Source: an uncultured delta proteobacterium
Lineage (GTDB): Bacteria; Desulfobacterota; Syntrophorhabdia; Syntrophorhabdales; WCHB1-27
Assembly: GCA_963810935.1 (NCBI GenBank)
Contig: CAWEPK010000009.1
Coordinates: 32,001 to 96,000 of the forward strand
Direction: 5' to 3'
Length of the DNA: 64,000 nt
Every line of letters begins with the position of its first letter. Position 1 is the first letter of the stretch. Under the pieces are notes generated by a model. The model was given only the letters and a program-made list of their open reading frames with translations. It did no database searches and was not told the DNA's origin. Both the position numbers and the translations under genes were made by a program. Below, in pieces: positions 31,933-63,893 of this stretch.

Positions 31933-32594
31933 GGCTTCGACCACCTTATTGAATAAGTTATTGATAACAGGAAATATGTTATAAGACGGTAGGGGTCGAT
32001 TCCCGCCGTCGGCTACCCCCATAGAACTCGTTTCGCTTTCGTTATGCTCCTGACGGGAAACCGAGCAGGGAGAACGCCTCCCGTGGGTTCGAATCCTACT
32101 CCCTTCCGCCATTAATCTTCGCATCCGTGAACCGGCTTCCGCGAAACAAAGTCTCCCATTACAGGTGGCAACCGCGCCGCAAGGCGCCTTTTTGTATCCT
32201 CTGAGCCCTTTGACAAAGTGTATGCAGTATTCCCAACGGGCATGGACATAATTAGTTGAAATTACATATAAAACTGTTTGCATAGAAAATAGTTGTTGAC
32301 TTAAGTAGGTGAAATTGAGTACATCTTATGTGCGTCTGGATGACCTTCTTTACTGTATGCAATGACGCCGTGATCGGGGTCCAAAGGGCGTGAACGGATC
32401 GGGGGAGAGGAGTACGGCAGAAAGTTAGGCAATGGGTAGTAATGTAATCTTCGGCTCTCCACCCGCATGTCTCAATGGTCCAGGCTTTTACGGCATGTCG
32501 CACCACTTCGGATTTCACAACTCGTTATCGAAACCATCGCGGCCCTTGCGTCAGCATTGGGCGTGTGAAGGAACAAAAGCAAGGGGGTATTGCA

Positions 32595-60873: not shown

Positions 60874-61509
60874 CTATGGAACTTTTTTGTAAACGAAAAG
60901 CCGGTACGCCGGGCTATGGCCCGGTAAGCTGTATATCTCGTCCTTCTCCAACGTAAAACCCGCGTGATCGGTAGGTTTTTCGTCCTTGCCCCGGACGAGG
61001 AAGGCCCTGCCGCCCCCGGCAAGGTGCCTCCCCCCTTTATCGAGCACCTCGGCTGCAGGGCCGAACGCCTTGGCGACGAGGAGATCGGTGGAGAGTGGGC
61101 TTATATCTTCTGCCCTGCCGTGGACGACCTGAAGGCCTTTGAGGCCGAGAAGGCGTTTAATATGGCGCTGGAAGAGGACCTTCTTGAATGTTTTATCGAC
61201 TGAATAAATGTCTCTCCCGGGGTCCAGTACGGCCAGGGGGATGGCGACTACGCCGGAGCCCGAGCCCAGGTCGAGGAGGGAGCCGGCCCCCGGCAGGCGG
61301 GACCGGATAAAAAAAGCGTCGTAGAGGAGGCCCTCTACGATCCGGCCGCCCCCTTTAAGACCGACCAGGTTCATCGTCCGGCCCCACCGCTCCAGCTCGT
61401 CGATATAGTACGCGAGGAGCGACACGGTCTCTTCGCTGCCTTCGATGCCGAAGGCGGCAAGGCCTTTTGCGATCAAATCACGCGGTCTTTGGGCGGCCTG
61501 TCCGGTCAA
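60874..61509 (-). CDS. rsmG: 16S rRNA m7G527 methyltransferase (GidB)
   Basis: W...MNL, DLGSGSG, KK..F, GRAE; TTG start after GGAGG; upstream of parA. Confidence 0.85.
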   Translation of the reverse strand: MTGQAAQRPRDLIAKGLAAFGIEGSEETVSLLAYYIDELERWGRTMNLVGLKGGGRIVEGLLYDAFFIRSRLPGAGSLLDLGSGSGVVAIPLAVLDPGRDIYSVDKTFKKVLFQRHIKRLLGLKGLQVVHGRAEDISPLSTDLLVAKAFGPAAEVLDKGGRHLAGGGRAFLVRGKDEKPTDHAGFTLEKDEIYSLPGHSPAYRLFVYKKVP

Positions 61510-61608
61510 GATACCTCCCGTAATGATTAACCTTAAGGAGGGGTGGACCTTGCCCCCTCGCGATATTAAAGTTAGCATAAATCTATTGTTTCTGTTATAG
61601 TAAACCCG

Positions 61609-63081
61609 ATGCGTATCAGGCTTGCGATTTTGGTAATCCTTTGCTTCGCCCTCGTCGCGTGCGGCAGCAGGAAGCAGGAAATAAAGAAGGTGGACAGCCC
61701 GGGGGCGCTCTACGTCCAGGGCATTGCCCACATGAAGAAAAAAGAGTGGGACAAGGCCATACAGGCATTCGGCAAGGTCCGGGAAAATTATCCCTTCGAT
61801 CCGATAGCTCTCGTAGCGCAGATAAAGCAGGCGGACTCCAATTTCGAAAAAAAGGCATACCCCTCGGCAGCCATAGCGTATGAGGATTTCGTCAACAGCT
61901 ACCCGGAAGACGAGAACGCAGCGTACGCCCTCAGACGCCTTGCGGAGTGCTACGAAAAGACGTCTCCGATTGCAGAGCGGGACCAGTCAAATACGTTCAA
62001 GGCAATCGAGCGATTCACCTTCCTGAAGAACCGTTATCCCGCCAGCCCTTACGCCAAAGACGCGGACGCGCACGTCAATAAGCTTACGGAGAAGCTGGCC
62101 GCAAGGGAAGTCTTCGTAGGCGAGTTCTACCACAGGTGGAAGAGATACAACGCCTCCATCATCCGCTTCGAATACTTTCTGCAAAAGTATCCGGACGCCA
62201 AAGACAGGGACAAAGCGCTCTATTACATCGCCCTCGATTACCAGGAGCTTCAGGATTCCGACAAGTCCCAGGCTTACCTCGACAGGCTGAAAAAGGAATA
62301 TCCGAAGAGCCGCTATCTCGGCGGGTCCATAAAGCGGGAGCGAAGGAGCCTCCAGGTAGCGAGCGTGAAGCCCGCTGCTGCTGTTGCAGCACCTGCTGTT
62401 GTGGGCGCGCAGCCGGCAGGCGCAGCTCCGGGGGCGCAGACTGCCATTGCCCAGCCTGCAGCGCCCATTGTGGCGTCTTACGAGGAGAAGAAGCCGAGGC
62501 AGATCGATTTGGAGCCTGTCGATCCACCAAAGAGTGGTGAAGCACAGCCCGCGCTAAAAGAAGGCGCGCAGGGCGCCCCCGACAAGGCCGCTAAAGACGC
62601 CGCCGCAACGGTTAAGAAAACGGACGACGGGAAAAGACTAGAGGCGAAGAAAACGGACGACGGGAAAACCTCTCTGGGCTTCTTCTCCGAGAAGAAACCC
62701 GTCGACGTCGTGGCGGATTCGATGGAGGGGCTCGAAAAGGGCAAGATCATACTTTTCAAGGGCAATGTAATCGCCAAACAGGTTGACCTTTATCTATTCT
62801 CGGACATGCTTACCGCCTATGTGAATGAAGAGACAAACGAGATCGACAGGGCCAAGGCCGAAGGCAACGTTAAGATAGTCAAGCTCGACAGGACAGCGAC
62901 CTGCAAAGAGGCGTTCTTTTATAACGACAAGGGAGAGATCATCCTGAAAGGGGACGTAATAGTCTTCTCGGGCAAAGACAAGGTCTCCGGCGACGTCGTA
63001 ACGTATTATATCAACGAGGACCGCGTTCACGTCATGGGCCAAAAGGACAAACGGGCCAAGGCGCTGATCAGCCCCAAATGA
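61609..63081 (+). CDS. bamD: BamD lipoprotein fused through a ~125-aa Ala/Pro/Lys linker to an LptA/OstA-like beta-jellyroll domain
   Basis: Lipobox LVAC; TPR motifs (ENYPF, FVNSYP, RDQS, RYPASPYA, LAAREVFVGEFY); C-terminus PVDVVADSM...FKGNVIAKQ...AEGNVKI...IILKGDV...GDVVTY. Confidence 0.88.
   Translation: MRIRLAILVILCFALVACGSRKQEIKKVDSPGALYVQGIAHMKKKEWDKAIQAFGKVRENYPFDPIALVAQIKQADSNFEKKAYPSAAIAYEDFVNSYPEDENAAYALRRLAECYEKTSPIAERDQSNTFKAIERFTFLKNRYPASPYAKDADAHVNKLTEKLAAREVFVGEFYHRWKRYNASIIRFEYFLQKYPDAKDRDKALYYIALDYQELQDSDKSQAYLDRLKKEYPKSRYLGGSIKRERRSLQVASVKPAAAVAAPAVVGAQPAGAAPGAQTAIAQPAAPIVASYEEKKPRQIDLEPVDPPKSGEAQPALKEGAQGAPDKAAKDAAATVKKTDDGKRLEAKKTDDGKTSLGFFSEKKPVDVVADSMEGLEKGKIILFKGNVIAKQVDLYLFSDMLTAYVNEETNEIDRAKAEGNVKIVKLDRTATCKEAFFYNDKGEIILKGDVIVFSGKDKVSGDVVTYYINEDRVHVMGQKDKRAKALISPK
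62614..62668 (+). repeat. 22-bp direct repeat (33-nt period) in the bamD-lptA linker
   Basis: AAGAAAACGGACGACGGGAAAA at 62614 and 62647, encoding KKTDDGK twice. Confidence 0.85.
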
Positions 63082-63163: not shown

Positions 63164-63490
63164 CTATCCGAGCACCTTCTTGATGAGATTATCGACTGTA
63201 CCCTTCGGGACGGCCCCGGTAACCCGTTCGACCGCCTCGCCTTTATTGAACAATATCAGCGTAGGTATCCCCCGGACGCCGAACTTCGACGTCGTTACGG
63301 GGTTCGAGTCAACGTTGAGTTTCATGACCTTCACGCGGCCGTCGTATTCGTCCGCCACGGTATCGAGAATCGGCCCCATCATCTGGCACGGTCCGCACCA
63401 GGTCGCCCAGAAATCGACCAGGACCGGAACGTTCGAATCTTCAACTTCATTTTTGAAATCGCCGTCGCTCAAGGGCGCTGCCTTGCTCAT
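63164..63490 (-). CDS. trxA: Thioredoxin
   Basis: VDFWATWCGPC, GIPTL. Confidence 0.95.
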   Translation of the reverse strand: MSKAAPLSDGDFKNEVEDSNVPVLVDFWATWCGPCQMMGPILDTVADEYDGRVKVMKLNVDSNPVTTSKFGVRGIPTLILFNKGEAVERVTGAVPKGTVDNLIKKVLG

Positions 63491-63543: not shown

Positions 63544-63714
63544 TCATTTTCAGGTGAAGCGGCCGCGGGGCTCGCAGCATGTCGGCGCATCCACTTTCTT
63601 CGCAGCAGGCTTGACGTCCTTGCTCCCGCAGTGGACGCATTCGGGTGCCTTATCGTCCGCATTCATCTCAAAAGATTTGCCGCATTTTTTACAATCGTAC
63701 TTCTTGCCTTCCAT
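63544..63714 (-). CDS. FmdB-like zinc-ribbon protein, probable C-terminal selenocysteine (ends at 63550 if the UGA is a stop)
   Basis: AAGGAGG RBS; YDCKKCG...CVHCGS...CCEPRGRFT-UGA-AAA-UGA. Confidence 0.8.
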
Positions 63715-63893
63715 AGGCTGGTTATCCTCCTTTGCGTGCACGTGAATCGTGTTTTGTCTAAATAGTATAATGTGCCGGAACGCCAATTACAACCCGGTGC
63801 AAGGCCGGGTGCTTGCGCCGCTGAAACGCAGACGACCACAGGAGTGATCTAAAGAACGGGGGAGACGCCCAAAAAGGCGCCCGTGCATCCTAT

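Follow-up and report, generated by a model that had tools for sequence, protein, structure and literature searches.

Does a single lipoprotein of an uncultured delta proteobacterium of the order Syntrophorhabdales join the machine that inserts outer-membrane proteins (OMPs) to the one that delivers lipopolysaccharide (LPS), and what would such a junction do? The question is raised by one gene in the window analysed here (a stretch of 64,000 nucleotides, positions 32,001 to 96,000 of contig CAWEPK010000009.1), for which a model that read the sequence without database searches had predicted a fusion of BamD, a subunit of the BAM complex, with LptA, a part of the Lpt bridge (the original prediction).

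Results

Anatomy of the fusion protein

In the ORF reading of the window the gene starts with ATG and encodes 490 aa with no internal stop, the uninterrupted frame that had been predicted (Table 1). The predicted lipobox is present as L-V-A-C at aa 15-18, with Cys18 invariant in 29/29 aligned proteins of the order. An AlphaFold2 model built from 29 homologues consists of confidently modelled TPR helices (31-238), a stretch with pLDDT <50 (240-354) and an all-beta domain (366-486). The signal peptide is the most hydrophobic stretch of the fusion protein: its most hydrophobic 13-residue window reaches 3.33 as compared to 1.66 in the linker, and this low linker hydrophobicity argues that there is no second signal peptide in the linker, again as claimed.

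The N-terminal part scores far above the cut-off of the BamD model TIGR03302 (aa 4-236; 198.3 bits, cut-off 81.4) and also matches PF13525 (117.4 bits, cut-off 25). The top Foldseek rows for this half are all BamD (3qky, E 4e-14; chain D of the BAM complex 5d0o was matched too), with an rmsd of about 2 to E. coli BamD chains, in agreement with the complete TPR domain of the original prediction. The genome (G000, 93% complete) holds one full-length PF13525 match among five and one TIGR03302 match, and it encodes a BamA with five POTRAs (contig C12). The fusion thus resembles BamD (YfiO) in lipobox, TPR fold, profile score and single copy beside a five-POTRA BamA; it differs in that BamD is a single-domain protein of ~245 aa, whereas the fusion is about twice as long, with a disordered tether and a jellyroll past the last TPR. 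Matched BamD chains of known structure have 193-251 residues, except for the engineered BamA-BamD fusion 5efr. By sequence and model, the N-terminal part reads as BamD by every criterion examined except length, and in the explanation that we favour the fusion, present in single copy, would be the working BamD of the cell. BamB gave no match above cut-off in 5/5 genomes, and BamE-like proteins gave weak matches in 3/5.

The C-terminal part matches PF03968 (aa 367-471; 58.8 bits, cut-off 20.4), so that PF13525 and PF03968 both lie above cut-off in one frame. It also matches the LptA model TIGR03002 (aa 361-490; E 1.3e-17) with 64 bits, below the equivalog cut-off of 71.7, which two of the seven fusions scanned from other families exceed (77.5 and 82.6). 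Foldseek pairs the jellyroll half with E. coli LptA (2r1a/2r19, E 4e-8), and a second AlphaFold2 model, of a relative with a short linker (81 sequences), matches LptH (Z 17.1) and LptA (Z 16.6) with an rmsd of 2.5-2.6 over 129 residues. The domain aligns with E. coli LptA 2r19 over its full length, first and last edge strands included. Profiles and models thus point to the LptA/OstA-type beta-jellyroll that had been predicted at the C-terminus, rather than to another fold. Compared with LptA (YhbN; LptH in P. aeruginosa; 2r19, 4uu4), the fused domain shares the fold, both edge strands and the hydrophobic alternation, but it has no signal peptide of its own, is membrane-tethered, lies outside an lptCAB operon, is an additional paralog and scores under the TIGR03002 cut-off. 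The domain is an LptA fold, though a non-canonical one by position, solubility and equivalog score.

Table 1. Features of the fusion gene, its neighbours and the LptC-LptA gene (positions in the window unless a contig or locus is named)
Feature	Position	Strand	Evidence
bamD-lptA fusion gene, 490 aa	61609..63081	+	single ATG-started ORF, profile matches, frame conserved across order
Lipoprotein signal peptide and lipobox, aa 1-18, Cys18	61609..61662	+	sequence, Cys18 conservation, hydrophobicity
BamD (YfiO) TPR domain, aa 19-238	61663..62322	+	TIGR03302, PF13525, AlphaFold2, Foldseek
Disordered Ala/Lys/Pro-rich linker, aa 239-354	62323..62670	+	low pLDDT, low identity
Basic motif directly after last TPR helix, aa 243-250, R-E-R-K-x-L type	62335..62358	+	conservation
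Mid-linker motif, aa 291-303, R/K-D/E/Q-I-x-L-x-P core	62479..62517	+	conservation
LptA-type beta-jellyroll, aa 355-490, both edge strands (first, last) kept	62671..63078	+	profiles, AlphaFold2, Foldseek, alignment
rsmG/gidB, divergent neighbour	60874..61731	-	PF02527; beside fusion in 49/50 order loci tested
Thioredoxin, convergent neighbour	63164..63490	-	PF00085; beside fusion in 45/50 order loci tested
Weak sigma-70-like site upstream of fusion	61572..61601	+	9/12 matches; 2 found vs 0.8 expected, chance possible
LptC-LptA fusion, membrane-anchored, between kdsD and lptB	G000:C8:565712-566629 (L002:1444-2361)	-	

The neighbours of the gene are rsmG and a thioredoxin gene, and neither lptC nor lptB adjoins it, as had been noted from the sequence. 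The listed start of the rsmG ORF is probably too far upstream. Promoter and terminator scans stayed near chance level. A small zinc-ribbon ORF, below the Pfam cut-off, lies upstream of the thioredoxin gene (63550-63786, minus strand).

The fusion frame is conserved across genomes

The window's assembly is error-prone: atpD (~54955) and atpA (~56885) are each split by one frameshift, probably through assembly errors, and the fusion frame was for this reason checked separately. A sequencing error could likewise have joined two genes into one reading, and in 7/61 genomes of the order the two domains do lie in different frames; five of these are interrupted within a domain and the other two (L075, L086) solely in the linker. 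The sites of interruption, however, are scattered and mostly mid-domain, and the downstream frames inspected have no signal peptide. BamD and jellyroll share one frame in 52/61 genomes (this genome and 60 relatives from four families of Syntrophorhabdales; 29 + 16 were read by locus and 7 taken from a summary table only); the locus is cut at a contig edge in one further genome (G041) and was not found in another (G053).

The original prediction had itself named a stop or indel in accurate reads as a way in which the gene might fall apart. In run X4 one contig covers 62203-62889, comprising the end of BamD, the entire linker and the start of the jellyroll, and its only gap is of 3 bases; all 4 indels listed across 4 sequencing runs, which come from a single study, possibly with the source sample among them, are of 3 or 6 bases, i.e. 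in frame. The same architecture is matched, with scores of 0.98-0.99, by three clusters of the ESM Atlas (55, 108 and 92 members), commonest in Thermodesulfobacteriota. Because the frame is conserved across genomes, the artefact explanation is refuted and retains a negligible probability. The BamD-LptA fusion is a real single-protein architecture, although databases label such proteins plain BamD or LptA.

A 119-aa protein of the collection (P0080) is identical to the window from Met372 on (62722-63078); another assembly with a frameshift ahead of this point probably gave rise to the gene call, although an internal start may also account for it.

A variable linker with two conserved motifs

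The predicted Ala/Pro/Lys-rich linker was recovered as a stretch of 116 aa with 27 Ala, 14 Lys and 12 Pro, disordered in AlphaFold2. Its length ranges from 59 to 199 aa among relatives in the order and is greater in other families, and outside two motifs its mean identity in 29 order proteins is ~17%. The basic motif (49% mean identity) is helical in the AlphaFold2 model of the short-linker relative. The mid-linker motif (55% mean identity, Leu301 invariant) is separated from BamD by at least 30 residues and from the jellyroll by at least 28, and its pattern, which was picked after inspection of the data, occurs in 27/29 linkers as compared to 0.34 expected from shuffles. Since both AlphaFold2 models (29 and 81 sequences) leave this motif disordered, a role like that of the BamC lasso, or in self-capping, stays a guess.

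The variable length of the linker, and the fact that AlphaFold2 orders no part of it between the domains, would suit an explanation in which BamD is simply a convenient, abundant outer-membrane lipoprotein, which holds a second LptA close to the outer membrane and lengthens the bridge, with nearness to active BAM being irrelevant. A lipobox alone would nevertheless suffice as an anchor, and the conserved motifs suggest further contacts of the linker. In addition, BamD has been kept as the fusion partner in 12 families (four in the order and eight others), with a single origin not rejected (see below). We consider the anchor-only explanation improbable. At 3.5 angstrom per residue, a linker of the minimum length (59 aa) spans about 200 angstrom and should still have sufficient reach.

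The jellyroll as an additional LptA paralog

Five residues of the jellyroll (Pro364, Asp366, Asp370, Ala483 and Pro489) are invariant in 29/29 order proteins, and alternating hydrophobic positions, as read along the sequence of the predicted strands, are conserved, which is what a lipid groove needs. Mean identity to the query in these 29 proteins is 69% for the jellyroll and 60% for BamD, and synonymous/non-synonymous codon differences in the jellyroll number 10/0 (against the relative G002), 50/13 and 59/12. The domain is thus under purifying selection.

The conserved groove pattern could also serve a lipid cup for BAM, into which LptC-LptA or some other donor would load LPS, phospholipid or the acyl chains of lipoproteins, and from which BAM or its substrates would receive them, independently of LptD; Lpt-type parts are reported to handle lipoproteins in Borrelia and Bacteroides. 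The last strand, which would face LptD, is however conserved too, with invariant residues. We know of no acceptor on BamA for such lipid cargo, which also counts against this possibility, and we hold it to be distinctly doubtful.

Mean identity of the jellyroll is highest to free LptA (32%), as compared to 22% for LptD N-domains and 21% for the LptC-fused copy, and its profile match to the LptD N-domain (E 2e-5) is weaker than that to LptC-fused LptA (E 6e-13). The fusion protein ends after the jellyroll, and no LptD barrel follows.

The genome also encodes lptF/G and lptE, and its kdsD-lptC/A-lptB-rpoN operon specifies LptC and LptA as a single protein of 305 aa. The same LptC-LptA fusion is found in 20/20 further loci of the order (21/21 with this genome; kdsD falls outside one of the stretches examined). 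PF03968 matches number one to four per order genome among the matches listed, with 16 weak rows besides, and eight odd short ones that were checked are copies or fragments of LptC-LptA or an LptD fragment. The 21 lptB operons and the short PF03968 frames checked in the order yielded no free LptA. Outside the order, each of the 22 fusion genomes carries a second, short, free LptA frame too, located directly before lptB in 11/11 loci examined, so that the bridge there needs no BamD-borne copy. The stand-alone lptA that the original prediction had suggested looking for thus exists in the other families, but in the order an LptC-fused copy was found instead.

Several proteins depart from these patterns. 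The LptC-LptA of G025 (L185:1834-2682) stops at 283 aa with its last strands absent, which may reflect either a genuine truncation or a mistake in the sequence; the operon LptA of G076 (L159:2763-4514) has 584 aa, with an N-terminal extension of ~450 residues that matches no NCBIfam model; and a 350-aa protein (P0218) has two tandem LptA domains.

It had further been proposed that the jellyroll stands in for LptD's N-terminal domain, and lptD was indeed not found in this genome's own assembly by PF04453, PF19838 or tblastn. However, the entire 13-kb lptD region of G002, whose fusion protein is 95% identical, has no match in the 93% complete G000, accD and folC included, which looks like an assembly gap. 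A 710-aa barrel (G000:C8:504336-506468) considered as LptD was rejected; it belongs to the YjbH family of outer-membrane barrels and lies in a capsule-like locus. The search for a full-length lptD succeeded in 57/60 order relatives; in the 20/20 order loci examined, LptD starts with a signal peptide followed by a jellyroll, and 20/20 other-family fusion genomes tested match the LptD N-domain profile (one of them split over two contig ends). As the LptD of relatives retains its own jellyroll, the stand-in idea fails, and we give replacement in this organism very little credence.

Since operon LptA and the LptD N-domain both exist separately in relatives and fusion genomes, the fused jellyroll is, by these comparisons, an additional LptA paralog, neither a relocated lptA nor a substitute for the LptD N-domain. 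The original prediction, which held for the anatomy and for the conservation of the fusion, had missed this extra-paralog status as well as the LptC-fused operon copy. A complex prediction that combined the fused jellyroll with the LptC-LptA of G000 and the G002 LptD N-domain scored 0.53, as compared to 0.47 for a control in which chain 1 was replaced, and this score speaks neither for nor against an interaction; jellyroll pairs resemble solved structures anyway.

Distribution, gain and loss

An even sample of the phylum gave a BamD match in 146/151 genomes. Outside the order, 22/140 genomes carry the fusion, in eight further families, and 118/140 do not; all 32 loci with frames of at least 398 aa and 8 others were examined, and the remaining 100 frames, of at most 332 aa, were counted as fusion-free because they are too short for both domains. 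In a profile search of 1.84 billion representatives, 15 of the 32 long or fragmentary matches scanned (from the best 150) show both domains among the best five Pfam families per protein; besides these 15, a jellyroll was detected by profile in P0110. One protein (P0058), considered as an LptC-LptA relative by its PF03968+PF06835 annotation, was rejected as a truncated BamD fusion.

In family f24 (L106:1080-3719, L107, L108) and the related P0102, P0106, P0109 and P0110 the fusion extends past LptA into another linker. At the C-terminus of four such extended fusions the scan showed one or two Cds6_C NTF2-like domains, which we take to be a cell-wall-enzyme-type module added to BamD.

Families f13 and f47 (L115, L116, L121, L122, L139) have a short tether and a strongly diverged jellyroll, with 17-18% identity to the query. 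In G109, of family f47, BamD is unfused and nested within a well-supported fused clade of the BamD tree, a position which indicates that the jellyroll was lost once, in this genome. A fused clade without G109 is rejected (p 0.0004) and one with G109 allowed (p 0.31), the latter grouping having been chosen after inspection of the tree. The jellyroll trees (135 columns, the first a quick tree) are poorly resolved; in a reduced tree of 46 rows, with LptD rows, LptC-fused rows and 14 near-copies removed, a single fused clade has a p-AU of 0.88, so that this test does not reject one origin for the fused domains.

Such a patchy spread, with one loss and degeneration in two families, is as for an accessory factor, and it bears on the main rival to the explanation preferred below. 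According to this rival the jellyroll would be an assembly cap or chaperone that holds the exposed edge of the LptD N-domain only during the stay of LptD on BAM, aids folding or blocks a premature bridge, then gives way to the true LptA and does not itself carry LPS. Operon LptA coexists with the fusion in every genome checked. According to 10.1101/2025.01.03.631273, LptD maturation in E. coli involves LptM (YifL) and BepA, which act on LptD at or near BAM, the very role that a cap would play; their folds are, however, unrelated to the jellyroll, they contact the LptD barrel, and they are not fused to BamD. PMC3944529 adds that LptA binds LptD only after a native disulfide has formed. A cap would need one edge and no groove, yet in the order conservation of the C-terminal edge is matched by that of the N-terminal edge and of the hydrophobic pattern. 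We take the cap as a serious contender that is nonetheless somewhat unlikely.

Discussion

We tentatively prefer, with a probability of roughly 40%, an explanation in which the BamD-tethered LptA docks on the LptD N-domain and serves as the outer-membrane-side link of the bridge. Every mechanistic step is here carried over from E. coli biology. The lipid anchor would put the fusion in the outer membrane, where BamD would bind BamA, and the free C-terminal edge of the jellyroll would pair with the N-terminal jellyroll of LptD as the latter folds slowly on BAM; LptD assembly is stated to take about 20 minutes (PMC13067283). A newly matured LptDE would in this way gain its first bridge link at BAM, and the N-terminal jellyroll edge would accept the incoming bridge, in the form of free LptA (other families) or LptC-LptA (the order). 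LPS would thereby be delivered beside the sites of OMP insertion.

Several observations favour this docking. Both edge strands are kept in an end-to-end alignment with E. coli LptA, the hydrophobic alternation is conserved, conservation within the order is higher for the jellyroll than for BamD, the jellyroll is under purifying selection and, of the groups compared, is closest to free LptA, and the lptB operons and short PF03968 frames checked in the order gave no free LptA. The tether also enters at the appropriate end: section 3.2 of PMC3944529 has the N-terminal end of the jellyroll facing LptC and the C-terminal end facing LptD, and in the fusion it is the LptD-facing end that is free. As background, LptDE remains partly with BAM via BamB and BamD (10.1101/2025.01.03.631273), and BAM beyond Proteobacteria consists of a BamAD core with lineage-specific additions (PMC13067283).

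Other observations weigh against the docking. All 22 fusion genomes of other families have free LptA as well, most of the phylum genomes sampled outside the order do without the fusion, the jellyroll was lost in G109 and has strongly diverged in f13 and f47, the fusion gene lies outside the lpt operon, and in the order LptC-LptA alone could reach LptD. In addition, according to PMC11912417, LPS insertion in E. coli is widespread and OMP insertion cell-cycle dependent, the two being apparently deposited by separate clusters; these differing patterns imply that coupling is not a general need.

For the order, the proposal can be taken further. The Syntrophorhabdales bridge might consist wholly of membrane-anchored parts, an inner LptC-LptA and an outer BamD-LptA that meets LptD, with LPS flowing only via those LptDE complexes that lie within tether reach of BAM. 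We regard this extension as unlikely, if worth stating: if true, it would amount to a hard-wired BAM-Lpt supercomplex, with LPS delivery matched to OMP insertion.

A search of the open literature, at the level of titles and the starts of abstracts, found no published description of a BamD-LptA fusion, in keeping with the original claim that none was known; subscription reviews on BAM/Lpt distribution, and supplements, may mention it. BamD is not mentioned in the accessible part of 10.64898/2026.10.02.756314. Multi-OstA fusions, in which jellyrolls are joined in longer chains, have been noted in genomes (PMC3944529, section 3.2). These predicted bridge fusions join Lpt parts to Lpt parts, as the LptC-LptA of the order does, whereas BamD-LptA joins an Lpt part to a BAM subunit.

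The fusion is a conserved architecture that unites two known machines. Its significance is limited by the familiarity of both domains, by the patchy spread and single loss of the fusion, and by a function that is a matter of inference; the joint architecture is, apparently, undescribed. The bridge of the order, for which no free LptA was found, bears on the number of jellyrolls per bridge. More broadly, the fusion touches the open question of how OMP insertion is coordinated with LPS delivery. As a natural and conserved covalent link, BamD-LptA is a Rosetta-stone hint that parts of the Lpt bridge engage LptD at BAM, and it suggests that in these anaerobes the BAM and Lpt machines are physically tied together.
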